This document shows positions 19,852 to 36,299 of a DNA stretch of 64,000 nt, piece by piece. The DNA is from an uncultured delta proteobacterium (GTDB lineage: Bacteria; Desulfobacterota; Desulfomonilia; UBA1062). The position numbers and the translations under genes are program-made. Numbering within the stretch: position 1 is the stretch's first letter; the number at the start of each line of letters is the position of its first letter. A model generated the notes under the pieces. The model was not told the DNA's origin, did not search any database, and saw only the letters and a program-made list of their open reading frames with translations. The stretch spans positions 109,372 to 173,371 of the forward strand of contig CAVVYZ010000030.1 in assembly GCA_963752595.1 (NCBI GenBank), written 5' to 3'.

Positions 19852-20723
19852 GGGTGTGTTTGCAAAGCTCATAACCAGAGGAATATAGCACCGATGACCC
19901 ACATGGAGCGATAACTGTCTGCTCGTTTATCATATCTTGTTGCTATGGAGCGGAATTGTTTGAGCCTGTTGATGAGCCGTTCGATCCGGTTTCTCATCCG
20001 ATAGGCTGCACGGTCGAATGGGCCACCCCGTTTATTATTGCTCTTCCTCGGGATCGTTACATGGATGCCATGTTTCTTAAGATACTCTCTGATCCACTGG
20101 GCGCTATATCCCTTGTCTCCGACGATGCGTTCGGGGCGATTTCTTGGTCTCCCTCCATGGAGCCGATTGATCGACCCATGTTCCATAAGGTCAAGGAAAG
20201 CTGTGGTGTCATGAGCTTCGCCGGGAGTAAGGGCAACCGTTATCGGTTTGCCTTCCCCTTCCGCCCGGAGGTGGACCTTGGTCGAGAACCCACCTCGACT
20301 ACGGCCAAGAGCCTCTTCTCTCTGCCCCCTTTTTTTGCACCCGCTGCATTCTGGTGTGCTCTTACAACCGTGGTATCAACGAAATGGACCTCCCAATCCA
20401 CATTTCCTTCCGAATCCGAGTCGGCCTGCAGCTCAGAGAGTATCCGGTCCCATACCCCGGCATCTCTCCACCTGCGAAAACGACTGTGTATGGTCGACCA
20501 TGACCCGTATCTCTCCGGGATATCCCGCCAGGGCGCCCCGGTCTTTACCTTCCAGAGGATCCCGTTGATGATCTTACGATGGTCTTCCGCGGGCCGTCCT
20601 GTTTCTGGTTTCCGGGCCGGGAGATATCCTTTGAGCTTTTCCCATTGCTTCTCTGTGAGTTCATGCCTTCTGTTCATTCCTATTTTGATGCTGTGGCTTA
20701 GTATTAAGTTTGCACACACACCG
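19852..20723 (-). mobile_element. IS5 family (IS427 group) element with two-ORF transposase
   Basis: ELTEKQW..GAPWRDIPERYGSW..RFRRWRDAGVW; GDKGYS..RNRIERLINRLKQFRSIATRYDK; IRs GGGTGTGTTTGCAAA / TTTGCACACACACCG; A7G slippery run on the minus strand near 20326-20337. Confidence 0.9.
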
Positions 20724-20799
20724 TAGTTGAATGTGGACACTTATTTGTCTAAAAATATCTTATAAATCTGAATTATTGGATCAAGGGATGTAAATATAA

Positions 20800-21536
20800 G
20801 TGAAGTTAAATTCAACATCTGGGATACTCTATGTTCGCGCAAGTCTTAGTCCATTTTCTGAACATATTAAGAGCGCAGGTGGCGTTATCGAGTTTTTCAC
20901 CAATCTTTTTTGTTTGATGAAATTATCGTACCGCATTTTTTTAGAGCGCGGCCATTTTGGCAGCCAGCATCACACTTGCCTAAGGTAACTAATTCCGGCT
21001 CATTAGGTAAAATGGTGGCTAATCATGAGCAAGCTTTTGTCAGTAGACACCCCTCACATAGTTTTGCAGGCATCGGCCCACGCGTGACTAATGTTCTTGA
21101 AATGCATGACTACAATTCATCGTGTTTTTTCCCGATATCAGAACTTGCTGCACGATACGATTTTTCTATGTTGTTGCTAGCATGTGTTAAAGAAAGTCCC
21201 GGATTCTCAACGGTTCATGCTGTTCAATATGAACTTGGCCTTTCTCAAAAACATCTTATCAGGCATTTACTTAGATGGGACATAGATCTGGGTGATAGGA
21301 CTAGAAGTATTAAGGCGCATGAGTCACCCGGTTGTAGCCAGTCATTTGATAAGTTCTACCCTTTTTATGAAAATGATGGAAATCTTATTCGCGGAGAATT
21401 GTTCGGCAAGTCTTATATTTTCATTAAATCGGCTAGGCAGGCAATGAAATCAGAGAGGGAAATTTTAAGAACCAATCCCCGTTTTGTAGATTGCGGTAGC
21501 CTGATCTGCTCTACGTGTAGATTTCGTCTTTACTAA
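20800..21536 (+). CDS. AAC(3)/YokD-family N-acetyltransferase (frameshift near 20905)
   Basis: ILYVRASLS, IIVPHF, SGSLG, SRHPSHSFAGIG, STVH, C-terminal C..C..C. Confidence 0.65.
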
Positions 21537-21543
21537 GGATATC

Positions 21544-22689
21544 ATGTATATCTTTTCATCCGAAATTAAAGTGCCTTGTGGGTGTTGCCTAGGGGGATAC
21601 GGTGATTGTACTATCGATAATATAAATAAGGGAGGTTCTTTGCATGCAAATGGTCTCGGGTTCAAAGAGTCAGCAAATCCAAGATTTATTGAGGTTTGTT
21701 CGATAGATGCGTTGTATCCGGGTGATTTGGTAATGCGACAAGCTAACCCGATGATTCAGCGAATTTTCGCTGCGTCACATACGCACTTTGCGCCAATGCT
21801 TGATGCTACAAAACCAAGTTTAGGTCGGCACTCACCAGATATGGTTGCATCGTTTGAGCATGCAATCGAAGGTGCAACAAGAGAGAGAATTGAACCAAAT
21901 CAATGTCTAATTTTCAGAGGGGAGGTCAAGTTACCAATCTATCGTCGTTTTGATTACCCCAAATCATTTGTTAACAATGTGTTGACACGACATGCTGGTC
22001 TGTTTCCAAATGAAGCCCATGAAGTTGATAGAGGTATCTATATCTTTCTTTTTCTGAATGGTTCGACTAATTTATTTGTGATCACTTACCATGCGTGTCA
22101 TCCCGTAACTAGGCACGATATAAAAGCCGTGTCAGCAGATTATGTAGATGCAATCCGACACGGTATATTTGAACGTTTTGGAACATCGCATTGCTTGTTT
22201 TTCTTAGGATGTGCAGGGGATATCCGGCCCAACTTTGCAAAAAAAAGAGTGATGTGGTTTCCGAAAAACCGGTTTAATTGGCGATTTAAGTATCCACCAT
22301 CAGAGATGGATCAGGATGAAGCAGATCAGCAATATCTGAATGCTGTCTATACTGCGAGCCCAATAGCCTCATTTTCAGTGAATGGTTCCGATTTTATTTA
22401 CAAACTCCGAAATCTTAATGTGCATGGTGTTGGTAACATATCTGTTCCCGAAGTTCACATAGGGAAATACGTGATATTTTCTTTCTTTCCATTTGAAATG
22501 TCGCATCGTTTTCACCTGGCAACGCGCTTGAATAAGGCGATGCCTTTGAAATTCATAGTTTCCTGTTCAAATCATACGTTGGGCTATCTACCTTATCCAA
22601 ATCAGCTTTCTTCTGGCGGTTATGAAGTTGATGGTTCACGGAGAGATATGGGGCTTAAAAACCGGCTGCTCTTAAAGGAGACCTTTTGA
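21544..22689 (+). CDS. Neutral/alkaline ceramidase-like amidohydrolase, hypothetical
   Basis: LGGY, SIDAL, ASHTHFAP, YHACHPV, SADY, FLGCAGD, GYLP, GGYE motifs. Confidence 0.6.
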   Translation: MYIFSSEIKVPCGCCLGGYGDCTIDNINKGGSLHANGLGFKESANPRFIEVCSIDALYPGDLVMRQANPMIQRIFAASHTHFAPMLDATKPSLGRHSPDMVASFEHAIEGATRERIEPNQCLIFRGEVKLPIYRRFDYPKSFVNNVLTRHAGLFPNEAHEVDRGIYIFLFLNGSTNLFVITYHACHPVTRHDIKAVSADYVDAIRHGIFERFGTSHCLFFLGCAGDIRPNFAKKRVMWFPKNRFNWRFKYPPSEMDQDEADQQYLNAVYTASPIASFSVNGSDFIYKLRNLNVHGVGNISVPEVHIGKYVIFSFFPFEMSHRFHLATRLNKAMPLKFIVSCSNHTLGYLPYPNQLSSGGYEVDGSRRDMGLKNRLLLKETF

Positions 22690-23789
22690 TAAAAACAAGG
22701 ATTGCCCATCTAACTACGACACATGCAAGAGATGAAGTTCGTATTTTTCACAAAGAATGTACAAGCATTGCCAAAGATGGATACGACGTGCACCTTATTG
22801 TTGCTGATGGGAAAGGGTTTGATCAAGCAAATGACGTTAAAAGACATGGTGTGGGCCGTACCTGCGGCCGTTTTCAACGGGTCTTCATTCAACCCTGGAA
22901 GATATATTTGATGGCACGACGGCTTCATGCATCGATATATCATTTGCACGAACCCGAGTTATTATTCATTGCCCCACTGTTAAAGCGAACGGGCGCACAT
23001 GTTGTGTATGACAGTCACGAAGATGTGCCACGTGCAGTAATGGGGCGCGAATGGGTTCCACCATTACTTAGGCGATTGGTATCGTTTGCTTTTGAGTCAT
23101 TTGAAGACTGCATTGTCAGCCAGATATCAGCTGTTATTGCAGCCACGCCACATATTGCATCGCGTTTTTCAAAGATAAATTCAAGAACCATTACTGTGAA
23201 TAATTTTCCACTTCTTAGTGAGATGGTTGAACCGCTAAAGTCATGTAGGGATGCGGAAACGTTCTGCTATATTGGTGGTATGAGTCGGACCCGTGGGGTG
23301 ATCGAGATGATACATGCATTGGATCTTGCTAATGCACGGTTGATATTGGCTGGTCCATTTGAGAATGCGAACACAGAGCTTTCTGCAAGGGAATTGGCCG
23401 GTTGGTCGAAAGTGGACTTTCGTGGCGTTGTGAGCCGCAAAGAGGTTTATCAAATTATGGCTCAATCGTGCGCAGGGTTGATTTTATTTTATCCTGAGCC
23501 TAATCATGTCAAAGCTCAACCCAACAAAATGTTCGAATACATGTCTGCAGGTCTTCCCGTAATCGCGTCTAATTTCCCCCTTTGGTGTGAGATCATCGAA
23601 AGCAATAACTGCGGCCTTTGTGTAGATCCGCTTGATCCTAAGGACATTGCTGCTGCGATTGATCGCCTTGTAATGAATCCTGATCTTGCGCGGCGCATGG
23701 GTGAGAATGGACGCCAAGCAGTTTTGAATAAATATAACTGGTCTATCGAAGAAAAAAAGTTGAGCTCCTTTTATGATGCATTACTTTGA
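22686..23789 (+). CDS. GT4 glycosyltransferase
   Basis: RIFHKEC, HLHEPEL, YDSHED, QPNKMFEYMSAGLPVIASNF. Confidence 0.9.
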   Translation: MIKTRIAHLTTTHARDEVRIFHKECTSIAKDGYDVHLIVADGKGFDQANDVKRHGVGRTCGRFQRVFIQPWKIYLMARRLHASIYHLHEPELLFIAPLLKRTGAHVVYDSHEDVPRAVMGREWVPPLLRRLVSFAFESFEDCIVSQISAVIAATPHIASRFSKINSRTITVNNFPLLSEMVEPLKSCRDAETFCYIGGMSRTRGVIEMIHALDLANARLILAGPFENANTELSARELAGWSKVDFRGVVSRKEVYQIMAQSCAGLILFYPEPNHVKAQPNKMFEYMSAGLPVIASNFPLWCEIIESNNCGLCVDPLDPKDIAAAIDRLVMNPDLARRMGENGRQAVLNKYNWSIEEKKLSSFYDALL

Positions 23790-24002
23790 TCTTCTAAAAA
23801 TGAAGTAATTGAAGGTATAATTACTGGCTCAATAAAAAACATTGCAATCTCAGCCACGCGTACTACGCACGCCATGGAACTGATGTAATCCTGGATATTC
23901 GCATCATAACGATACAGCATTGATAACTAAGAAAAAGGCCCAACAATAATCCATCCGGAAGAAAGGAAGGGACAGAGAAAGAAGCCGGAGGATGATTACT
24001 CT

Positions 24003-25365
24003 GAGGCCTTTGCACAAATCCGGCAGTTCCGGGGCGAGACGCAGAGCCGATTATCAGCGATAATGGCATTTAATGCAATGATAATATTGATCAATTATGG
24101 TACATTCTTTCCATCTTGTGAATCAAGGGGAGGGATGGAATGGGATTCAAGGAGTACGAGAGGAACATGAGTTTTCTGGATCTTGAATTGAGCAAGACAT
24201 TGGGGTCTTCGAGGACGCAGCGGTTTTTGAAGGAGATCCACGATCATATCAGGTGGGAGCCGTTGGAACGTATCCTGAAGGGAGTCTACCCGGTGGGGAA
24301 GTCGGCAGTGGGCAACAGTGCCTATCCTCCGGTGATGCTTTTAAAGGCGTTAATGCTGCAGAAGTGGTTTGGGATCAGGAGTGATCCTGAACTGGAGAAC
24401 CAGATCAACGATCGGATATCATTCAAGGTATTCATCGGGCTGCCTTTTGGGAACCCATCTCCAGATCACAGTGTGATTTGTCGGTTTCGTGAGCGGGTTG
24501 GCAGTGGATGCGAGGCTGGTGAGATCGGCATCGAGCCCTTTAAGCAAGGACAAGCTTGAGAAGGTGCGTGAAGATCGGGAGCAGAAGGAACAAGAGGGGA
24601 TAGGCAAGCCGATAAAGTTCAGCCGGGATCTGGAATCTGACTGGACAGTGAAGAATGATAATCCGGTCTATGGGATGAAGGAGCATACGTCTATTGATGT
24701 AAAGAGCGGGCTGGTATTATCGATGGTGCTCTCGCGAGCATCCGAGCATGACACGAACTATTTACAGTATGTGGTAATCAAGGGGATTCATACAAAGAAG
24801 CTGCCGCCGAAGGTGTGGATAAGGGGTATCATGGGCAAGTAAACCGTGAGTTCTTGCATATCAATGGGATAGCAGACGGGATCATGCGCAAGGATGAGAG
24901 GAATGCAAAGCTGACAGAGCTTGAGGTAGAGCGAAACAAGATGATCGCGAAGGTTCGCTATAAGATCGAGCAGTATTTTGGGGTCACAGCCCTACACCAG
25001 GGAGCCTCCCGAGCCCGGTTCACCACTCTTGCCCGGGAGGGATGGGACAGAATCTGCCAGGTATTGCAGCGGCAATTAAAGAAATGAACATAAGCCTGGG
25101 CAAGAATCGTTTAGGATTCAGATGAATAATTGCCGCTACTATAATTGCGTTCAATATGAAGCGGTCATACTTTGCGGGGTTAAGGCAGCCTGCACATGCA
25201 ACGGCTTTCTAGGGACAGGTGTGTCCGGAGCATGGAAATACTACCGGATATGAGAGAATTGGGGATGATTTTGGCTGGGAATTGAGACCTTTTTCTTGAG
25301 AAACTGATGAAAAAATACCAATCACCCCCAGATAAACGCTTCTTGCCGGATTACGCAAAGGTCTC
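24003..25365 (+). mobile_element. IS5 family (IS1106-like ends) element, degenerate
   Basis: IRs GAGGCCTTTGCACAA / TTACGCAAAGGTCTC; LLKALMLQKWFGIRSDPELE, PDHS, YKIEQYFG; ~80-bp internal deletion near 24500, 4-bp deletion near 24815, MITE insertion. Confidence 0.9.
25064..25141. mobile_element. 78-bp MITE (copy 2) inserted in the IS5 transposase 3' end
   Basis: Comparison with the uninterrupted paralog at about 37830 (CAGGTTATTGCGTTC) shows a clean insertion with duplicated TA. Confidence 0.85.
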
Positions 25366-25376
25366 GGGGTATCTTT

Positions 25377-26015
25377 ATGTTTAAAATAGGTAGAGTTTTA
25401 GTTTTGGCACCGCATACGGATGATGGGGAATTCGGTTGTGGGGGCACGATAGCAAAGTTGATTGATGAAGGTAAAGAGGTTTATTATGTTGCTTTCTCTG
25501 ATTGCGAGAAATCGCTGGACCCCGGCATGGCACCGGATACGCTCGTTAAAGAATTAATGAGTGCCACAAAGGAATTAGGTATTCCGGAAGGGAATGTTCT
25601 TGTCAAAAAATATGAGGTCAGATGCTTCGGCAGAGATAGGCAGGATATATTAGAAGACATGGTATATTTTAACAAGCATATGAATCCTGACATAGTGTTC
25701 CTTCCATCACCTAAGGATCTGCATCAGGATCACAACACAATTGCAATGGAAGGGCTGCGGGCATTCAAACTGACTTCAACTATCCTCGGTTACGAGGTGC
25801 CATGGAACAACCTTTCCTTTAACACGACAAGCTTTGTGACGCTGAGCGAAGATAATATAAATAGAAAAATTGATGCATTAAAATGCTACGAATCACAAAC
25901 CAACCGTTTTTATTCATCTGGGCAATTCATAAGATCATTAGCCATAACACGAGGAACACAAATCGGTACACAATATGCGGAGACTTTTGATGTACTCAGG
26001 TGGATCATTAGATAA
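25377..26015 (+). CDS. PIG-L/LmbE family deacetylase
   Basis: LAPHTDDGEFGCGG and DLHQDH metal motifs; GYEVPW; YESQ. Confidence 0.9.
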   Translation: MFKIGRVLVLAPHTDDGEFGCGGTIAKLIDEGKEVYYVAFSDCEKSLDPGMAPDTLVKELMSATKELGIPEGNVLVKKYEVRCFGRDRQDILEDMVYFNKHMNPDIVFLPSPKDLHQDHNTIAMEGLRAFKLTSTILGYEVPWNNLSFNTTSFVTLSEDNINRKIDALKCYESQTNRFYSSGQFIRSLAITRGTQIGTQYAETFDVLRWIIR

Positions 26016-26062
26016 AATATGACAACGCCAACACAGTATACAACGTACATTGAGGATATGAC

Positions 26063-27397
26063 ATGGCGAGTATATTAGACAAAATTGAACTGCTAAGTTA
26101 TCAAGAGCACTATGAAAAAGTTGATAAATATTTACTGATCAATCAACTAAAATATGTAATGGAAAACAGCCTATTCTATTATGATAAATTCAAGAGTTCC
26201 CGCGTTAACACAATTCCGTCAATAGATGCGTTTTTAGATTTACCATTTACAGATAAGCGTGAAATTCTTGATGAGCAAGCATCATATCCCCCCTTTGGCA
26301 GACTGGCGATTGGCAATGATGTACGTTCGTTAAGAAGGGTTCATGTGACTTCTGGTTCAACTGGGAAACCGGTATATATCATTTTAACGGAGAATGATTT
26401 AGCGGCAACAGTTGAAGCTGGAGGAAGAGCTTTTAGGTGTGCTGGATTAACGCCTGATGATACAGTGATTCACTGTCTGAACTATTGCTTGTGGGCTGGT
26501 GGTGTTACAGACCACCTCAATCTGGAAGCGACAGGCGCAACGGTAATCCCTTTTGGCGTCGGAAATACGGTAAACCTCATACGAACCATTCGTGATTTGC
26601 ATCCGACGGCAATATCCTGCACACCATCATATTTATCGCGTCTTGAGTATGTATTAGAAAAAGAGTTCAACGTGCAACCGCCGGAACTTGGCCTTAAGAA
26701 AGCCCTCCTTGGCGGTGAGGGTGGCGTTCAAGATACCAAGGTGCGATCAAGAATTGAGACAACATGGAATTTGCGAGCGATTGATGCTAACTATGGCATG
26801 GCAGATGTGCTTAGTATCTTTGGATCAGAATGTGAAACAAGAGAAGGTATGCATTTTCATGGGCAGGGTATTCTTTATCTTGAACTAATTGAACCGGAGA
26901 CAATGAAAGTACTCTCTTTAGAAGATGGACAGGTGGGTGAAATGGTTTTGACAACTTTAAAAAGAGAAGCACAGCCTCTTGTCCGCTATCGAACTGGTGA
27001 TGTGGTGAGAATTGTCTCAACAAAACAATGTAAATGTGGGAGGTCATCATTTAGATTTGTCGTTATTGGAAGAACTGATGAGATGATTGTGGTGCGGGGT
27101 ATAAATGTTTTTCCATCCGTGATAACAAATATTTTATCAGAACGCCCCGATTGGTTCACTGGTGAATATGAATTTGTGTTGGACAATCCGCCTCCAATTG
27201 AAAGACCTCTTTTAAGAATTGAACTTAAGGCTACAAACATCAATGCGGCGGATAGAACTATTGAATCATTCATTCAAAGAAAATGTAGAGAGAACTATAA
27301 TTTTACGCCCCGCATCCAATTATTAACTATAGGCACCTTACCGAGGACGGAAGGTAAGTCCAAAAGGCTTAGAAGGGTTTATCAGGAAAAGGAATGA
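26063..27397 (+). CDS. Phenylacetate-CoA ligase (PaaK) family adenylate-forming enzyme
   Basis: LPFTDK, TSGSTGKP, CTPSY, GGEG, NYGMAD, PLVRYRTGD, GRTDEMIVVRGINVFPS, LPRTEGK. Confidence 0.88.
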   Translation: MASILDKIELLSYQEHYEKVDKYLLINQLKYVMENSLFYYDKFKSSRVNTIPSIDAFLDLPFTDKREILDEQASYPPFGRLAIGNDVRSLRRVHVTSGSTGKPVYIILTENDLAATVEAGGRAFRCAGLTPDDTVIHCLNYCLWAGGVTDHLNLEATGATVIPFGVGNTVNLIRTIRDLHPTAISCTPSYLSRLEYVLEKEFNVQPPELGLKKALLGGEGGVQDTKVRSRIETTWNLRAIDANYGMADVLSIFGSECETREGMHFHGQGILYLELIEPETMKVLSLEDGQVGEMVLTTLKREAQPLVRYRTGDVVRIVSTKQCKCGRSSFRFVVIGRTDEMIVVRGINVFPSVITNILSERPDWFTGEYEFVLDNPPPIERPLLRIELKATNINAADRTIESFIQRKCRENYNFTPRIQLLTIGTLPRTEGKSKRLRRVYQEKE

Positions 27398-27529
27398 AGT
27401 AAAAAAAGAGACATCGCTACAACCAATATTCAATGCCATTAGTAAGGTTTCTGACGCCATCGTGCCAATGGATCAAGTAAGTCTATGACATTATAAAACA
27501 GATAATCGTAATCAGGAAAAGAGGGATTT

Positions 27530-28420
27530 ATGCCTGTCACAAGTTCGGACGTAGCACATTTTTTAGAGAAAAAATTAAATGGGGCTTCCGTATCTATTGA
27601 TAAACCTGCTGATTTGAATGAATGTGGCTCGTCAGATATTGTGTGGGTCAAAAAGTTTAGTCCTGAGCGTTTAAGCATCTTGGAATCGAGGCGGCCAGGT
27701 TTAGTTATATGTGATGAGACAACATCTCAGAATACACTTGTTTCAAACATTATATCTAATAACCCACGCTTGGATTTTATCAAGGTTATGAACCATTTCT
27801 TTTCACGCCCACCCAAAATAGGAATTCATCCAACCGCAATTATTGAAGAAGGCGCTATATTAGGAAGCAACATAAGTATCGGTGCATACTGCTGTATCGG
27901 AAGCCAGGTGAAGATAGGTGATAATTGTGTGATACATTCTGGTGTTGCGATTGAAGGTAAAGTTCACTTGGGAAGACAATGCGTAATTAAATCAAATAGC
28001 GTGATAGGCGGTGAAGGCTTCGGTTTTGAATATGATGAAGATGGGAATCCAATACATTTCCCGCATATTGGAAGAATAGAAATTGGAGATGATGTCTGGA
28101 TTGGTGCATGTTCAACAGTTGAAATCGGTGCTCTCGGTGCAACAGTAATTCGTAATGGATGCAAGATTGATGATTTAGTCCAAGTTGGTCATAATGTCAT
28201 CGTAGGCAAAAATACGCTTATAATGGCCAATACGATAATTTGCGGCGGTGCGATTATTGGCGAAAAATGTTGGATTGCTCCTAATAGCGTTGTAAAAGAG
28301 AAAATCAGGATTGGCAATAGGGTGACTATCGGCCTTGGTTCTGTAGTAATCAGAAATATTGAGGATGACATCATAGTCGCTGGTGTACCGGCAGCGCCAC
28401 TTAAGCCTAAGAATAAGTGA
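27530..28420 (+). CDS. LpxD-like hexapeptide N-acyltransferase
   Basis: NPRLDF, IHPTAII, GGEGFGF, FPHIGRIEIGDDV, KIDDLVQVGHNV. Confidence 0.85.
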   Translation: MPVTSSDVAHFLEKKLNGASVSIDKPADLNECGSSDIVWVKKFSPERLSILESRRPGLVICDETTSQNTLVSNIISNNPRLDFIKVMNHFFSRPPKIGIHPTAIIEEGAILGSNISIGAYCCIGSQVKIGDNCVIHSGVAIEGKVHLGRQCVIKSNSVIGGEGFGFEYDEDGNPIHFPHIGRIEIGDDVWIGACSTVEIGALGATVIRNGCKIDDLVQVGHNVIVGKNTLIMANTIICGGAIIGEKCWIAPNSVVKEKIRIGNRVTIGLGSVVIRNIEDDIIVAGVPAAPLKPKNK

Positions 28421-28464
28421 TAAATAAACTTCCTTATTGATATTTTCGATAAAAGGAGAGGTAT

Positions 28465-29361
28465 ATGTATAGAATTAAAAGAATAGAGATTTGGGCATCT
28501 GAGATAGCGGAATACCTCAATAAGCCATTTGTGGGAAAGGATTTTATCATAAAAGATCTCCATTCCATTAAAACTAATAAATCTTTCATAAATCATTTAA
28601 CTGCAAACGATGAGATTAAAGATGATATTTTAGTGATATCTAAGGCGCCATTTGATCAACTGAAATGTGGAGGATACATAATATCAGAAAACCCAGATCT
28701 TGATTTAGCCTACTTGCTACGAGAATTCTTCACGGTTTCGTCAATCAGTGAAGTACATGAAACTGCAATTATAGCTGAAAATGCGAAGATTGGTCGCAAT
28801 GTCATGATAGGCGCAAACTCTGTCATCGGTGATGATGTTGTCATTGGCGACAATACAAAAATCTTGAATAATGTAGTTATAAATGGTCCCGCGGAGGTAG
28901 GCAAATTTTGTATAATTAAGGATGGTTCTATTATTGGCAGCGAAGGGTGGGCATTTATTAATGATGAAGATGGTATACCTCTACATGTTCCGCAAGTGGG
29001 CCGCATCTTGATTAAGGATAGAGTTTGGATTGGGTCAAATGCTACAATAGAACGAGCAATGATTGATGAGACGATAATAAGCGAGAATGTAAAAATTGAT
29101 GACCTTGTACATGTTGGTGGAGGATCTATTGTTGGGGAAAAAGCTCAATTGACCGCAGGCGTGGTGGTCGCCTACTATGTAAATATTGGCCTTTGTACAG
29201 TAATAGCACCCAATGTGGTCATTAGAGAGCATGTTAACATTGGTGATAATGTATTGGTTGGACAAGGGGCTGTTGTCATTTCTGATCTTGAAGGTGGTAA
29301 TGTATATGTAGGTAATCCGGCACGTTTTCTTAAGAAGAATGTAATAATACATGGACGGTAA
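28465..29361 (+). CDS. Second LpxD-like hexapeptide protein
   Basis: VHETAII, GSEGWAF, VPQVGRI, KIDDLVHVGGG, VGNPAR. Confidence 0.82.
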   Translation: MYRIKRIEIWASEIAEYLNKPFVGKDFIIKDLHSIKTNKSFINHLTANDEIKDDILVISKAPFDQLKCGGYIISENPDLDLAYLLREFFTVSSISEVHETAIIAENAKIGRNVMIGANSVIGDDVVIGDNTKILNNVVINGPAEVGKFCIIKDGSIIGSEGWAFINDEDGIPLHVPQVGRILIKDRVWIGSNATIERAMIDETIISENVKIDDLVHVGGGSIVGEKAQLTAGVVVAYYVNIGLCTVIAPNVVIREHVNIGDNVLVGQGAVVISDLEGGNVYVGNPARFLKKNVIIHGR

Positions 29362-29363
29362 AT

Positions 29364-30449
29364 ATGGAAAAGGATATATTTAAAGAAAAGATAACGCCTT
29401 TCCTCCAGGAAAGGCTTGCTAACCTCGAATCCTCTTATGGTAAAGAATCAGCCGCTTATAAAGGCCTTGCACTTCAATATGTAAGAAGTAACATGGAGAA
29501 TATTGAAACAGAAGAATGTAATTTGAAACATTATGAAGCGGGCCTGGAAGCACAAGAGTTATCAGATGGTGTGCCTGGAATTGAAAGATTATACAAAAAA
29601 ACCATAGTCGTTGAACCAACCCTCATTTGTCTTGCACATTGCCGGTATTGTTTGCGGAGTAATTATAAGAAACATACGCTTACAGAAAAACAACTTATTG
29701 AGATAGCAAAGTATTGTGGTAATGAAATGAATCGCATAAGTCTCAATGAAATGCTGATTACCGGTGGTGACCCCCTTATTGTACCGCAAAGGCTTGAGGT
29801 GCTTTTGAATGCCTTGATTGAATATGCCTCTAATATAAAAATTATCAGAATTGGTACGCGGGTGCCAGGTCACGACCCAAGAAGAATTGATGAAAGCATC
29901 GTTGCCCTTTTTAAAAATAAGCCCACATTACGATTTGAACTTGCCACTCAGATTAATCATCCCATAGAATTTTTCCCGGAAGTTCAAGAAGCCTTTAAGA
30001 AGATCAGTGAGTTAGGGGTTAAAATATATGCGCAAAATGTTCTATTAAAAGATGTGAACGATAATATCGATACGCTTAATGAACTATATAGCGAAATGAG
30101 AGGAAATAATATTGAGGCACACTACCTCTTTCATTGTATCCCCATGATTGGAATACATCACTTGAGAACCAGTATAGGAAAAGGATTGGACTTAATCAAA
30201 GAATTGGTCTGTTCTGGAAAAATCTCAGGCCGGGCTAAACCAATGTTTGCGGCTATGACAGACATTGGGAAGATTACATTCTATGAGGGAGTTATTCAAA
30301 AAAGAGAAAATGGACGTGTTCTTTTGCAAAGCAATTATCGTTATGTGGATAGATTGAAATGGAATCCATCATGGCAGCTACCCAAAACGGCAGAGATTGA
30401 TGAAAATGGTTTATTACGGGTTTGGTATGTCGATGGCGAAGACTCATGA
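29364..30449 (+). CDS. KamA-family radical SAM/PLP 2,3-aminomutase-like protein
   Basis: ITPF, CLAHCRYCLR, LITGGDPL, IIRIGTRVP, INHP.E, QNVLLKDVND, HYLFHC, IGK. Confidence 0.85.
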   Translation: MEKDIFKEKITPFLQERLANLESSYGKESAAYKGLALQYVRSNMENIETEECNLKHYEAGLEAQELSDGVPGIERLYKKTIVVEPTLICLAHCRYCLRSNYKKHTLTEKQLIEIAKYCGNEMNRISLNEMLITGGDPLIVPQRLEVLLNALIEYASNIKIIRIGTRVPGHDPRRIDESIVALFKNKPTLRFELATQINHPIEFFPEVQEAFKKISELGVKIYAQNVLLKDVNDNIDTLNELYSEMRGNNIEAHYLFHCIPMIGIHHLRTSIGKGLDLIKELVCSGKISGRAKPMFAAMTDIGKITFYEGVIQKRENGRVLLQSNYRYVDRLKWNPSWQLPKTAEIDENGLLRVWYVDGEDS

Positions 30450-31747
30450 GAATTTGGTTGGTTTCTATAGGTGAACCAATACCAACAAGCTCTGACAGTA
30501 ATTCTCGATTGCTTCGAACAGGATATTTTGCTAATTTACTGTCACAATATGGCCATGATGTAATCTGGTGGTCTTCTGCATTTGATCACTTCAGAAAAAA
30601 GCAGCTTTGCACTACGGATAACGATTTTATTATTAATCAGAATCTTACTATAAAGCTTTTGTGTGGCTCAGGATACAAAAGTCATGTGTCGCTTAAGCGG
30701 GCCTGGGATCACTGGATAATCTCTAGGAAGTTTTCTTCGGCCATTAGGAAGGAGATTATACTTCCGGATCTAATTTTAGCTGCATTACCTACGATAGATC
30801 TCTGCTATGAATCAGTTGTGTTCGGGAATCAACATGGCATACCAGTAGTTCTTGATATGCGAGACATGTGGCCAGATATTTTTGTTGATCTCGCTCCTGA
30901 TTTCTTAAGACCATTAACACGACGCCTTTTAAGTTATCAGTTTCGGAAAGCTGGATACGCATGCGAAAAAGCCACGGCTATTGTTGGGATAACGGATGAA
31001 TTTGTTGTATGGGGTTTAAAACGGGGACAACGTAGCTGGCAAGAATTCGACAAATCATTCCCCTTTGGATATTCGATTCAGGCCACAACAAGAGAATCAG
31101 AGGACAAAGCATATATTGAACTCAGTCGTCGAGGAATTCGTTTCGATGACAACAACTTATATGCTCTTTATATTGGATCGCTCAGTCGCAATGCAAAGTT
31201 AGGTGATATCATATCTGCAAGCAGAATTCTTTATGAGCAAAACTCGAAATGGCAGTTTATTGTATGTGGCGATGGTGATTGTGTTGATCTAATAATAAAT
31301 CATGCTAGCAAATATCCAAATGTAAAATACGGGGGTTGGGTAGATAAAAATTTGATTCATGGTCTAATGCGACGATGTCATGTTGGGTTAAATCAACTTC
31401 CTGATCGATACGATTTTCTTGCCACCATCAACAACAAAGCCATTGAGTATATGAGCGCGGGACTCCCTATTATTTCAAGTCCGGATCGGGGTGTTCTATG
31501 TGAGCTTCTCAAGATGCATGAGTGCGGGATAAGTTATTCTTCTGGTGATGCTGCTGCTCTAGCTGCGACGCTTTCACGATTTTATGATGACCGGGATATG
31601 CTAAGGAAAATGTCACAGAACGCCATGCTGCTCTTCCAAAAACGGTTTCCCGCAGAAAAGGTTTATACAGAGATGATGGAGCATTTGGTGATGATAGCGG
31701 AAAATACAAAACAGAATCAATCTTTTAGAACAAGACACCAATTTTGA
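30446..31747 (+). CDS. GT4 glycosyltransferase
   Basis: IWLVSIGEP, FDH, DMRDMWPD, NKAIEYMSAGLPI. Confidence 0.85.
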   Translation: MRIWLVSIGEPIPTSSDSNSRLLRTGYFANLLSQYGHDVIWWSSAFDHFRKKQLCTTDNDFIINQNLTIKLLCGSGYKSHVSLKRAWDHWIISRKFSSAIRKEIILPDLILAALPTIDLCYESVVFGNQHGIPVVLDMRDMWPDIFVDLAPDFLRPLTRRLLSYQFRKAGYACEKATAIVGITDEFVVWGLKRGQRSWQEFDKSFPFGYSIQATTRESEDKAYIELSRRGIRFDDNNLYALYIGSLSRNAKLGDIISASRILYEQNSKWQFIVCGDGDCVDLIINHASKYPNVKYGGWVDKNLIHGLMRRCHVGLNQLPDRYDFLATINNKAIEYMSAGLPIISSPDRGVLCELLKMHECGISYSSGDAAALAATLSRFYDDRDMLRKMSQNAMLLFQKRFPAEKVYTEMMEHLVMIAENTKQNQSFRTRHQF

Positions 31748-32719: not shown

Positions 32720-33406
32720 ATGAATAAAACCGGATTAATAGAAGCTCAGACTACTTGTACAGGAGGACAGATAAAATCCGTCATCCATCCCGCTTGGGCG
32801 CTGGTTCTAAAGCGGTCGTTCGATATGGTGTTTTCCTCGTTTGTACTCCTTTTGATATGGCCGTTGATTGGGGCAGTGGCTATTGGCATTAAGTTGTCCA
32901 GCCCTGGGCCGGTCTTTTACAGAGGCGTAAGGACAGGCTTACACGGGAAACCTTTCCGAATCATCAAATTCAGAACCATGATAGAAGGTGCCGAATCTCT
33001 GGGTGGGCCTACTACAGGCACTAACGATCGGAGAGTAACCCGTATTGGCTCCTTCCTCCGTCGAACCAAGATCGATGAACTACCCCAGTTCCTGAATGTC
33101 TTGTTGGGGGATATGAGCCTAGTTGGACCTCGCCCAGAAGTGTTTGAATACACGGCAAATTACGAAGGTGAGGAAAAATGCATTCTTTGTATGCGCCCTG
33201 GTATAACTGATTACGCGTCAATAGAGTACGCCGACCTTGATGATCGTGTGGGGAGTAGAGATCCAGACAGGTACTTTCGTGAACATATCCTACCCCACAA
33301 GAATGCATTACGGATCAAATATGTGAAGGAATGGTCCCTTGGCTCAGATTGCAATATTCTCTGGGTGACCTTTTGCCGGGTCGTGAAGAGGATTGCTGTT
33401 CAATGA
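32720..33406 (+). CDS. Bacterial sugar transferase (initiating phosphoglycosyl transferase)
   Basis: [36 protein letters not shown]. Confidence 0.92.
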
Positions 33407-34353
33407 GCATTTTGGAGACAATGCATCTGGGTAATACTGGTCCTTATGCCAGTCGTCTTGGTATGGGCTGTTGGGCAATAGGCGGTCATGGGTGGGGAAA
33501 GGTGAGGGAGGAGGAATCCATCCGGGCTGTAAAGTGTGCATTAGATAGTGGAGTCACATTTTTTGATACGGCAGATGTGTATGGGCTTGGGAAGTCAGAA
33601 ACATTATTAGCAGATGTGCTGGGCTCATCCCGCACAAAAGTTGTGATTGCAAGCAAAGGGGGCGTCCGTTGGAACGATAGTGGGCATATATGGACAGATA
33701 TCTCACCGACCTACCTGAGACTAGCTATAGAAAATAGCCTTAAAAGATTGAAACTGGATTGCATTCCCCTTTACTATATTCATAAATTTGATGATATAAC
33801 CCCTGTACAAGAGAGTATTGCAGCCCTTGAGCGTATGCGTAAGGAAGGTAAGATCGGGTCTATCGGTGTTTCGAACGTCTCTTCCGATCAACTGTTACAG
33901 GCCTTGCAGGTTGCACCGGTAGCAGCGGTTCAGGTTCGGTTGAATATCTTTGATCGAGATGCGAGTAAGGATTTATTCGACATTTGTAAAAGGCAGGGCA
34001 TTACACTTGTTGCTTGGGGCGCACTTGCGGATGGACTATTAACCGGTAAGTTCAAGGCCGATATGAAGTTCTCAGACGACGATCATCGGAGCAGGATGCC
34101 AGAATTTAAAGGGAAATTATTTCTGGGATATAACAGATGCATACAATCGCTTGAGCAGGTGGCTACCGAAAGGGGACGCCGGGTTGGCCAACTTGCACTT
34201 CGCTGGGTCTTGGATCTTGAGCCTTTTACATGTGCGCTTTTCGGCGCAAAAACGGATACTCAGGTAACTGAGAATTTGGGCGCGGATGGGTGGAGCTTAA
34301 CAAAGGTAGATCTCACAGCTATCGATTCCATTGTGGGTAAGTTTGGAAGATGA
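33403..34353 (+). CDS. Aldo/keto reductase
   Basis: LGMGCWAIGG, FFDTADVYG, SLKRLKLD, KEGKIGSIGVSN, GLLTGK. Confidence 0.9.
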   Translation: MSILETMHLGNTGPYASRLGMGCWAIGGHGWGKVREEESIRAVKCALDSGVTFFDTADVYGLGKSETLLADVLGSSRTKVVIASKGGVRWNDSGHIWTDISPTYLRLAIENSLKRLKLDCIPLYYIHKFDDITPVQESIAALERMRKEGKIGSIGVSNVSSDQLLQALQVAPVAAVQVRLNIFDRDASKDLFDICKRQGITLVAWGALADGLLTGKFKADMKFSDDDHRSRMPEFKGKLFLGYNRCIQSLEQVATERGRRVGQLALRWVLDLEPFTCALFGAKTDTQVTENLGADGWSLTKVDLTAIDSIVGKFGR

Positions 34354-34354
34354 T

Positions 34355-35332
34355 ATGACTTTCTCAATCGATGCATTATATGATTTGTATAAGACCATGC
34401 TTCGCATACGCTTTTTCGAAGAGGGCCTGGTGGAACCCATCCTGAACAGAGAAATCCACACGCCCTGCCATCTTTACAGTGGTCAGGAGGCTGTAGCCGT
34501 TGGCCTCTGCAAAGCCCTTTCCCAGGATGATTATATCTTCGGCAACCACCGTTCGCATGGCCATTTCCTGGCCAAAGGAGGTTCCTTGCAGGCCTTGGCG
34601 GCCGAGATCTACTGCCGGGAGACCGGCTGCTCCCGGGGCCGTGGTGGTTCTATGCACCTGATCGATCCCACAGTGGGCATGCTTGGTTCGGCGCCAATCG
34701 TGGCCGGGACCATCTCCCTGGCTGTAGGCGCGGCCCTTGCCTCTTTGATACGAAAGGACGGCCGCGTGTCCGTGAGCTTTTTCGGGGATGGAGCTACCGG
34801 GGAGGGTGTCCTGTATGAATCCATGAACTTCGCCGCGCTAAAAAAACTCCCGATCATATTCGCCTGTGAAAACAATCTATACGCTACCCACATGCACATC
34901 CGGGAGTGCCGCGTCAACCAGCCGATCCGCAAGATTGCCGAACCCTTCGGGATTGATAATCATGAAGTGGATGGGAATGATGTTCTGCAGATCTACGGTA
35001 AGGTACGACAGGCCGCAGAGGCCTGCCGGAAGGGAAATGGTCCGGTTTTCATGGAGTTCTTGACCTATCGCTATCGCGGCCACGTAGGGCCGGATGACAA
35101 TATCCAAGGGCTCCATACGGATATCAGACCCCAAGAAGAGTTAACCCAATGGTTTGAGAAAGACCCGATCCGGAGACTTGAGCGGCACCTCATGGAACAC
35201 CATTTGATGGACGAGCAAGATCTGCTGCCTATCAAGGATGAAGCAGAAAAAGAGGTACGGGAAGCTAAGGCGTACGCAGAAAACAGTGCACGACCGAGAC
35301 TTGAGGAGATGGCCAAATATGTCTTTGCATAG
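34355..35332 (+). CDS. ThDP-dependent dehydrogenase E1 alpha subunit-like
   Basis: HLYSGQEA, HRSHGH, GRGGSMH, FFGDGA..ENN, TYRYRGH. Confidence 0.92.
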   Translation: MTFSIDALYDLYKTMLRIRFFEEGLVEPILNREIHTPCHLYSGQEAVAVGLCKALSQDDYIFGNHRSHGHFLAKGGSLQALAAEIYCRETGCSRGRGGSMHLIDPTVGMLGSAPIVAGTISLAVGAALASLIRKDGRVSVSFFGDGATGEGVLYESMNFAALKKLPIIFACENNLYATHMHIRECRVNQPIRKIAEPFGIDNHEVDGNDVLQIYGKVRQAAEACRKGNGPVFMEFLTYRYRGHVGPDDNIQGLHTDIRPQEELTQWFEKDPIRRLERHLMEHHLMDEQDLLPIKDEAEKEVREAKAYAENSARPRLEEMAKYVFA

Positions 35333-36299
35333 AGAATTATCCTACAGTCTGGCGATCAACGAGGCGCTCCATCAAGTGATGTCGATGGACCCCTCAGTCT
35401 TCCTCATCGGGCAGGGTGTAAAAAGTCCCTGGTATGTAGGAAATACTGCCCGTGGTCTCATAGAAAGATTTGGAGAACGTCGGGTGATTGATACACCTGT
35501 ATCCGAGAACGGCATCACCGGGGCAGCCGTTGGGGCGGCTATCGCTGGCATGAAACCGGTGGTGGTCCATCCCAGGATAGATTTCATGATGTATGCCATG
35601 GATCCAATCATTAACGAGGCGGCGAATTGGTTCTATATGAATGGCGGCCTGGCAAATGTTCCGGTCGTTTTCTGGGGCATCATCAACCGGCGGGGTGAAC
35701 AAGCGGCCCAGCATTCACAGGCTCTTCATGCTGTCTTTGCCCATGTTCCCGGGCTCAAAGTGGTCATGCCCGCCACTGCTTATGATGCCAAGGGACTGAT
35801 GGTCGCTGCCATTCAGGATCCCAACCCCGTTGTTTTTATAGATGAACGATTGCTCTACCACCTTGAAGAGTCTGTTCCGCAAGAGATATATCGCGTAGAG
35901 ATCGGTAAGGGTTGTATCCGCAGAGAAGGAAAAGACGTAACGGTTGTGGCAGTTTCACTGATGGTTCATGAGGCCATAAAGGCGGCTCATGAACTTGTCG
36001 ACGATGATATTGATGTAGAAGTCATAGATTTAAGGACCATCAAACCGCTTGATCGAAAAATAATAATGGATTCAGTCCATAAAACAGGACGGCTTGTTGT
36101 TGTTGATGTTGGCTGGCGATCATTTGGTGTTTCGGGGGAAATTGCTGCCTTGGTAGCTGAGACAGCCTTTGAGTCTTTGAAGGCACCAATTTTGCGAGTT
36201 GCTCTCCCCGACTGCCCGGCGCCGGCCAGCATGATGTTGGAAGATGAATACTACCCGACAGCAAGAGATATTGTTGAAGCGGTACGAAGACTCATGTAA
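35319..36299 (+). CDS. ThDP-dependent dehydrogenase E1 beta subunit-like
   Basis: DTPVSE, AAQHSQ, PGLKVV.P, DLRTIKPLD; overlaps the alpha gene. Confidence 0.92.
   Translation: MSLHRELSYSLAINEALHQVMSMDPSVFLIGQGVKSPWYVGNTARGLIERFGERRVIDTPVSENGITGAAVGAAIAGMKPVVVHPRIDFMMYAMDPIINEAANWFYMNGGLANVPVVFWGIINRRGEQAAQHSQALHAVFAHVPGLKVVMPATAYDAKGLMVAAIQDPNPVVFIDERLLYHLEESVPQEIYRVEIGKGCIRREGKDVTVVAVSLMVHEAIKAAHELVDDDIDVEVIDLRTIKPLDRKIIMDSVHKTGRLVVVDVGWRSFGVSGEIAALVAETAFESLKAPILRVALPDCPAPASMMLEDEYYPTARDIVEAVRRLM

Follow-up and report, generated by a model that had tools for sequence, protein, structure and literature searches.

A conserved module of KamA-like, BvaA-type ligase and LpxD-like genes in surface-glycan loci and its possible role in beta-aminoacyl decoration

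Genes of the cassette

A 64,000-nucleotide stretch of contig CAVVYZ010000030.1 (assembly GCA_963752595.1; genome 84% complete), which belongs to an uncultured delta proteobacterium and is referred to here as the window, includes a block of six genes centered on a divergent KamA-like radical S-adenosylmethionine (SAM) enzyme. The first-pass annotation of this DNA described six intact, co-oriented genes and proposed that they comprise a new pathway for beta-aminoacylation of a surface glycan. The gene calls hold, uninterrupted plus-strand open reading frames (ORFs) being found at these coordinates, and the family labels assigned at that stage agree with family scans. The six genes are as follows.

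25377..26015, plus strand: PIG-L family de-N-acylase, accessory (PF02585; HTDD and HQDH motifs)
26063..27397, plus strand: predicted BvaA-type (PaaK-fold) beta-amino-acid CoA ligase, core (BvaA pocket residues)
27530..28420, plus strand: LpxD-like beta-helix acyltransferase 1 (His221 kept; without the C-terminal helical domain)
28465..29361, plus strand: LpxD-like beta-helix acyltransferase 2 (His-less clade)
29364..30449, plus strand: divergent KamA-like radical-SAM enzyme, core; predicted from its motifs to be a non-lysine, probably valine, 2,3-aminomutase
30446..31747, plus strand: GT4 glycosyltransferase, outside the conserved core (start at ATG)

The gaps between successive genes, from the PIG-L gene to the KamA-like gene, are 47, 132, 44, and 2 bp. 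The GT4 gene overlaps the KamA-like gene, as initially described, although its start is more likely to be the ATG at 30446, which forms ATGA with the stop codon of the KamA-like gene, than the TTG at 30422. The absence of an acyl carrier protein (ACP) gene from the window was corroborated by a six-frame motif scan that gave no acidic ACP-like ORF, and that of epmA by the lack of any match above the EpmA/GenX cut-off in the 84% complete genome. Given this lack of EpmA and the presence of canonical lpxD, paaK, and lysine-type kamA genes on other contigs of the same genome (C5, C9, and C1, respectively), the cassette genes are distinct from the housekeeping copies.

A three-gene core in diverse glycan loci

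The KamA-like protein has 974 matches among 3068 candidates, and the best 120 all exceed 50% identity. A relative in Geomonas oryzisoli (P0020) is 71% identical. Eighty genome loci were taken, of which 67, with KamA identity of at least 38%, were treated as the subfamily; the remaining 13 (below 38%) were excluded from the counts. The trio of KamA-like, ligase, and LpxD-like genes is found in 26 of the 67 loci, spanning 12 named phyla, and glycan genes (at least one of 15 glycan marker queries matched) lie near the trio in 24 of the 26; LpxD matches in two loci (L015 and L018), which cluster with canonical LpxD, were omitted from the trio counts. Seven more loci contain the KamA-like gene and the ligase only, and five combine the KamA-like gene with an adenylation (A) domain and an AAC(3)-like gene. 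In a check seeded with the ligase, 33 metagenome loci had flanks of 3.5 kb or more at both ends, several of them duplicates of the genome loci; a KamA-like gene was identified in 25 of the 33 and an LpxD-like gene in 24. The co-occurrence of these three genes is far beyond chance.

The prediction that the whole six-gene cassette recurs in glycan loci is upheld for the trio and not for its other members. Among 37 non-redundant trio loci with at least 8 kb of flanking sequence, a close PIG-L homolog is present in 11, two LpxD-like genes in 9 (plus L013), and an orthologue of the GT4 gene in 2, namely, L004/L088 (87%; L085 is a fragment of the same locus) and L102 (73%). The PIG-L and second LpxD-like genes are accessory, and the GT4 gene is not part of the core. 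The KamA-like subfamily is sporadic, being represented in 3 of 401 genomes of the phylum and in none of the 40 nearest relatives, 11 of which belong to the same genus. Such patchiness is characteristic of exchangeable O-antigen modules. Plasmid records contained no close KamA-like relative, the listed matches being 27–32% identical. In four loci (L007, L009, L033, and L047), two or three conserved proteins of 370–450 residues without a convincing Pfam match are encoded beside the trio (for example, L007:7937-9052, L047:10290-11648, and L009:7366-8541).

The ligase shares the substrate pocket of BvaA

Identity of the ligase with phenylacetate ligase PaaK was rejected: the protein scores 232 bits against the TIGR02155 cut-off of 646, and all six residues of the PaaK aryl pocket (Y136, F141, A147, A214, I236, and P245) are different. 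A PaaK-like ligase with an altered pocket has been characterized in Pseudomonas sp. SBV1. According to the accessible part of that report (PMC4619459), this enzyme, BvaA, makes beta-valinyl-CoA, far prefers beta-valine over 3-aminobutyrate and beta-alanine (minor activity), and is inactive on the tested alpha-amino acids, beta-lysine, fatty acids, and phenylacetate; its pocket differs from that of PaaK1 by the substitutions Y136L, F141W, A147D, A214G, I236N, and P245I. Aligned via 2Y27, the window ligase contains all six of the published substitutions, as L139, W144, D150, G218, N243, and I252 (LWDGNI). The W, D, and N are invariant among the matches that cover the six positions, both KamA-linked (71 of 71) and unlinked (37 of 37). 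P0330, used as a stand-in for BvaA, fits the published residues L167, W172, D178, G245, and N270 at a single offset that gives 466 residues, the length of BvaA, and its C-terminus is the sequence encoded by the reverse primer in the accessible text; the window ligase is 42% identical to P0330 over 425 residues and 28% identical to the genome's own PaaK.

Relatives of the ligase without an aminomutase belong mostly to bva-like catabolic clusters. There are eight well-flanked ligase loci of this kind; an enoyl-CoA-hydratase (ECH)-fold gene adjoins the ligase in L133, L155, and the shorter-flanked L107, a similar gene is present in L149, and a 254-residue ORF occupies this position in L137, L138, L147, and L160. 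Relatives on Variovorax and Caballeronia plasmids combine the ligase with an ECH-fold gene, an amino-acid transporter, and a sigma-54 regulator, as described for bva in the accessible text, and two of the three plasmid ECH-fold partners have the E113, E133, and F139 reported for BvaB1 at identical numbers. Because of the pocket match, the identity to P0330, and the bva-like relatives, the substrate of the window ligase is very likely a small beta-amino acid, with beta-valine as the leading candidate.

A divergent KamA-like enzyme with a hydrophobic pocket

The KamA-like protein scores below every KamA-family cut-off (for TIGR00238, 138.7 bits versus 199.2), and its predicted structural model (pLDDT 89) has lysine 2,3-aminomutase (PDB 2A5H) as the best Foldseek match (E 6.5e-21; next family at 3e-6). 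In the alignment to 2A5H, the CxxxCxxC cysteines (C89, C93, and C96), R98 (equivalent to R134), and K303 (equivalent to K337) fall on the corresponding residues; all are invariant in 40 of 40 rows, and the equivalents of R198, R202, and Q258 are retained as well. In lysine 2,3-aminomutase (LAM), we take R134 to be the carboxylate-binding arginine, K337 the lysine that forms a Schiff base with pyridoxal phosphate (PLP), and D293 and D330 the residues that bind the side-chain amine of lysine. In the window protein, D293 is replaced by I259 and D330 by M298 (I/V and M/L across the subfamily); the genome's KamA on C1 retains both aspartates. We read this pattern as indicative of an aminomutase whose amino-acid substrate has a side chain that is small and uncharged. 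Taken with the specificity predicted for the ligase, the hydrophobic pocket suggests that the protein is probably a valine 2,3-aminomutase; the favorable tertiary C3 radical of valine would likewise fit beta-valine.

Members of the subfamily also occur in other contexts. In five NeuB loci (L021:11113-15009, L024, L031, L036, and L045), an alternative module consists of the KamA-like gene, an AAC(3)-like gene, an A domain, and an ACP, mostly along with DUF4910; in a verrucomicrobial glycan locus (L064:8681-11056), an ATP-grasp domain is fused to the KamA-like domain; and actinobacterial KamA-like genes adjoin ATP-grasp ligases or nonribosomal peptide synthetase (NRPS) genes. Since differing activating and transferring folds surround one and the same enzyme, its product appears to be an amino acid that serves as acyl donor. 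An archaeal nonulosonate locus (L043, Nitrosopumilus sp.) encompasses a KamA-like gene, an LpxD-like gene of the cassette clade, and PhyH; no BvaA-type ligase was found in this genome, and an acyl-CoA synthetase gene next to the KamA-like gene, considered to encode a third activating enzyme, was rejected because its product scores above the cut-off of the housekeeping 3-hydroxypropionate-CoA ligase.

Several further associations were observed. In four Streptomyces loci (L020, L029, L030, and L052), a preATP-grasp/PGM1-type ligase comes just after the KamA-like gene, in most cases with an MFS exporter as well, possibly a cluster for a small beta-amino-acid peptide. An actinobacterial subgroup (L051, L055, L056, L057, L059, and L065) has a differing pocket (V80, D84, L100, and L/M290) and probably takes another substrate; several of these genes adjoin NRPS, KAS III, TauD, or PhyH genes. 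In alphaproteobacteria (L017, L026, L038, and L042), stand-alone KamA-like genes are located among housekeeping genes near groES/groEL, and no ligase of the BvaA-type family was found with them. The lysine-type KamA gene on C1 of the window's own genome is followed by two D-Ala-D-Ala-ligase (Ddl)-like genes (L172:4075-7399), possibly a separate uncharacterised module for beta-lysine ligation.

The LpxD-like acyltransferases and the source of the amine

In E. coli LpxD, as described in the accessible part of a published study (PMC6286764), H239 is the catalytic base, D232 and Q236 bind the beta-hydroxyl of the donor, and ACP binds the C-terminal domain. The first LpxD-like protein retains the histidine (His221) and Q236; the second has Gly in place of the histidine. 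Both keep D232 and have Asp for N233, an extra acid beside the beta-substituent site that would suit an ammonium group, and both end shortly after G(V/N)PA, without the C-terminal helical ACP-binding domain. The G(V/N)PA motif is typical of CoA-dependent beta-helix acyltransferases. The two proteins score 208 and 167 bits with TIGR01853 (cut-off 242.5), and LpxD is their closest solved relative, but the cassette genes form a clade apart from the genome's own LpxD. The clade of the second gene consists of 17 rows (support 95/94), 16 of them His-less, and in about ten loci its member is the sole LpxD-like gene, which makes a dead copy improbable; N-acyltransferases that lack the base, QdtC among them, provide a precedent. 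The two enzymes may each acylate a different amine or may assemble into a mixed trimer.

The PIG-L protein matches PF02585 (E 1.9e-15), with the HxDD and HxDH motifs in the form of HTDD and HQDH, and the Dac and BshB structures are among its matches. The 37 trio loci include 11 with a deacetylase only, 16 with an aminotransferase or NeuB only, 8 with both, and 2 with neither (Fisher p 0.005, a value that treats kin as independent, with CE4 genes common in polysaccharide loci). This complementarity supports the view that PIG-L is another means of providing a free amine on the sugar, in line with the role suggested for it in the first-pass annotation, albeit as an accessory enzyme given that close PIG-L homologs are confined to 11 of the 37 loci. 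From the neighboring genes, candidates for the acceptor sugar are a 2,3-diamino uronate or a QuiN/FucN derivative.

A possible route and its alternatives

Together, these observations suggest that the trio is a portable three-enzyme module of surface-glycan loci. The KamA-like enzyme would convert L-valine to beta-valine by a radical 1,2-amino shift dependent on SAM, a [4Fe-4S] cluster, and PLP, the enzyme class being judged from its fold and motifs and valine from the ligase and the hydrophobic pocket. The ligase would then activate the product to beta-valinyl-CoA at the expense of ATP and CoA, the step for which the support, from the BvaA pocket match, is best. A CoA-type beta-helix enzyme may N-acylate the free amine of a nucleotide-linked amino sugar, the amine being supplied, as gene complementarity suggests, by PIG-L deacetylation here and by aminotransferases elsewhere; the neighboring GT4, judging by adjacency alone, may take up the sugar. 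The predicted product is an N-(3-amino-3-methylbutanoyl) sugar that would add positive charge to the coat. The logic of aminomutase, ligase, and acyltransferase proposed at the outset is thus retained, in the light of the pocket and the conservation of the trio, and its six-gene extent is not.

On the basis of sequence comparisons, it is probable that the cassette serves for beta-aminoacyl decoration of a surface glycan in one form or another. The specific version, in which beta-valine is made from L-valine, activated, and attached to a surface sugar, we propose more tentatively, with not quite an even chance of being correct. Somewhat more guarded still is the generalization that members of the KamA-like subfamily act naturally as L-valine 2,3-aminomutases and that the trio puts beta-valine on surface glycans, nonulosonic-acid pathways included, in at least 12 phyla.

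Several observations temper the assignment of beta-valine. The pocket signature is common to a large family, including all 37 matches without a KamA-like gene in the fetched DNA, and two glycan loci (L093 and L129) contain the ligase, again with no KamA-like gene in the fetched DNA. BvaA (GenBank KM595283) was compared through published residue numbers and P0330, in which the sixth pocket residue is Ile at 279, the position published for BvaA in the accessible text being 278; furthermore, 42% identity leaves room for another beta-amino acid. In the KamA-like protein, cofactor-side positions of LAM are altered (R116 to T, W226 to E, G256 to Y, and Y287 to H), so that its use of PLP is not certain. 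The second LpxD-like protein lacks the catalytic histidine, and 29 of the 67 subfamily loci, many of them outside glycan loci, have neither this ligase nor the module of A domain and AAC(3). In five genomes with the stand-alone alphaproteobacterial gene, no such ligase was detected at E<=1e-40, and ligase matches in three further genomes lack the BvaA signature.

The same route could operate on another small or branched amino acid, with conversion of 2-aminobutyrate to 3-aminobutyrate, alanine to beta-alanine, or isoleucine or leucine to their beta-isomers. Glycan-locus ligases branch apart from the catabolic ones (FastTree, SH-like support 93), pocket positions 218 (G/A) and 252 (I/M) vary among the ligases, and the minor activities of BvaA point in the same direction. 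We nevertheless consider such a substrate unlikely, if far from negligible, in view of the match to BvaA at six of six positions and, on chemical grounds, of the tertiary C3 radical that valine would form compared with the unfavorable primary one from alanine; besides, 2-aminobutyrate is not a standard pool amino acid. Alternatively, the beta-aminoacyl group might be an intermediate that is finally N-acetylated, N-formylated, N-methylated, or alpha-hydroxylated, with PIG-L perhaps acting on the acyl amine. Long GNATs, a formyltransferase, a methyltransferase, and PhyH-like dioxygenases do flank the KamA-like gene in some loci, and the block in the window has three acyltransferase-fold genes (AAC(3)-like and two LpxD-like), but none of the tailoring genes is constant, and deacetylases tend to occur in trio loci where aminotransferase or NeuB genes do not, which makes this possibility improbable.

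It is more improbable still that the KamA-like enzyme is not an amino-acid aminomutase and performs other radical chemistry, for example, on a sugar or a CoA ester, as its scores under all KamA-family cut-offs and remodeled cofactor-side residues could suggest: R98 and GK303 are invariant, and in actinobacteria the neighbors are amino-acid-activating (A domains, ATP-grasp ligases, and NRPS), with no sugar genes detected nearby. Slimmer again is the chance that PIG-L and the LpxD-like proteins mimic LpxC and LpxD, with a precursor of lipid A or of a glycolipid being acylated in place of a polysaccharide sugar; the affinity to LpxD and the score of the first protein above the PRK00892 subfamily cut-off fit this scheme, but the genome has a canonical lpxD on C5, the cassette clade is separate and lacks the ACP-binding domain, and an LpxD-like gene of this clade lies near the KamA-like gene in the archaeon L043. 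Archaea make no lipid A.

The preferred reading, attachment of beta-valine, reduces an uncharacterised radical-SAM subfamily to a single testable prediction, the conversion of valine to beta-valine. If true, it would add valine 2,3-aminomutase to the known enzyme activities and open a route to a beta-amino acid whose amine-bearing carbon is tertiary. As a beta-valyl amide, the glycan decoration would carry a positive charge and might influence surface charge and the binding of phages; being isobaric with valyl, it would be missed by mass spectrometry alone. The cassette would also be a biological source of the beta-valine consumed by widespread bva-type catabolic clusters; the accessible part of the beta-valine catabolism study (PMC4619459) names no natural source.

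Genomic surroundings

The cassette is embedded in a composite glycan locus, with a DegT aminotransferase, a dehydrogenase-hexapeptide fusion, Wzz, Wzx, WbuX with HisH- and HisF-like genes, an AAC(3)-like gene, and a GT4 upstream, and TylF, a priming transferase, an aldo-keto reductase, E1 alpha/beta, and a CapD-like gene downstream. Two features lie upstream of the cassette.

20910..23789, plus strand: AAC(3)-like acyltransferase, ceramidase-like ORF, and GT4, immediately upstream of PIG-L in L102
24140..25087, plus strand: fragmented transposase (DUF772 and DDE pieces) between the upstream GT4 and PIG-L, absent in L102

The broken transposase splits the upstream GT4 from PIG-L in the window; the two genes are adjacent in L102, the closest syntenic relative. 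The AAC(3)-like gene and the ceramidase-like ORF (20910-22689) are kept alongside the cassette in L102, a lead toward a second deacylase/acyltransferase pair; the ceramidase-like label is itself a lead from the ESM Atlas, with PF04734 on 12–21% of the cluster members. The aldo-keto reductase and E1 alpha/beta genes (33331-36299), common to the window and L004, resemble a set for branched-chain sugar synthesis. An ORF at 19956-20726, without a Pfam match, has 96–98% identical copies on C17 and C24 and is probably a mobile element gene. Across the genes from 20910 to 31747, GC content is 0.38–0.44 and that of third codon positions (GC3) 0.30–0.41; GC is about 0.53 in most contigs, and GC3 is 0.44–0.62 in TylF and the genes downstream of it. 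Promoter and terminator scans gave results near chance (31 versus 23.3 ± 4.9 and 6 versus 6.0, respectively). Least probable of the alternatives is a catabolic or unrelated island that came to lie in a glycan locus by chance, as the largely catabolic ligase family and the position of the block between transposase remnants, with no counterpart found in 40 relatives, might suggest, because the block has an acyltransferase in the place of an ECH-fold partner and glycan genes accompany the trio in 24 of 26 loci.

Comparison with known systems

In the open literature searched, we found no O-antigen or glycan decoration supplied by an aminomutase, no valine 2,3-aminomutase, and no 3-amino-3-methylbutanoyl glycan, the search having covered neither subscription papers nor carbohydrate structure databases, where a described beta-valyl glycan is possible; the accessible part of a review of marine glycans mentions no beta-alanine, aminobutyryl, or similar group. 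Two apparent precedents were rejected: the supposed 3-amino-5-hydroxyhexanoyl group of the Flavobacterium psychrophilum O-antigen is 3,5-dihydroxyhexanoyl, according to the accessible text, and the "aminomutase" of the Legionella O-antigen locus is an unrelated glutamate-1-semialdehyde 2,1-aminomutase.

The ligase shares with BvaA the PaaK fold and the same six pocket substitutions, but BvaA is catabolic and is paired, in the accessible description of BvaA/BvaB (PMC4619459), with ECH-fold ammonia lyases; in the present glycan locus, the ligase is instead accompanied by an aminomutase-like enzyme and acyltransferases, from which the predicted direction is biosynthetic. With the KamA family (2A5H; AblA, EpmB, and glutamate and arginine 2,3-aminomutases), the window protein has in common the fold, CxxxCxxC, R134, R198, R202, Q258, and K337, and it differs in having I and M for D293 and D330, in lacking the GGGGK loop, and in its N- and C-termini. 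The resemblance to LpxD and LpxC lies in a beta-helix N-acyltransferase with an N-terminal domain and D232, and in de-N-acetylation preceding N-acylation; unlike LpxD, however, the window proteins lack ACP-binding helices, have N233 changed to D, and have lost the histidine in one clade, and the deacetylase is PIG-L rather than LpxC.

For anthrose, we take AntA to be a side-chain enzyme and AntD to have the beta-helix fold, and the beta-hydroxy group is made by a hydratase; AntD was not among the 29 PDB matches of the second LpxD-like protein. The accessible part of the relevant account (PMC8141488) names the 3-hydroxy-3-methylbutyryl-CoA ester and AntD, and the likeness consists in the transfer of a beta-substituted branched C5 acyl-CoA to a nucleotide-sugar amine by an N-acyltransferase. 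The difference is that a beta-amino group is predicted here, originating from a radical-SAM aminomutase and a dedicated ligase, so that the decoration, if confirmed, would be a cationic counterpart of the anthrose side chain. In F. psychrophilum, the exchangeable wfpC-G block makes an unusual acyl group that a PglD-like enzyme adds to a UDP-amino sugar; this block, in the accessible part of its description (PMC6519341), follows an ACP/ketoacyl-synthase route to 3,5-dihydroxyhexanoyl, with no aminomutase or beta-amino acid. Across these comparisons, the architecture of an unusual acyl-CoA combined with a beta-helix N-acyltransferase is known; what appears to be new is the supply by an aminomutase and the predicted substituent.

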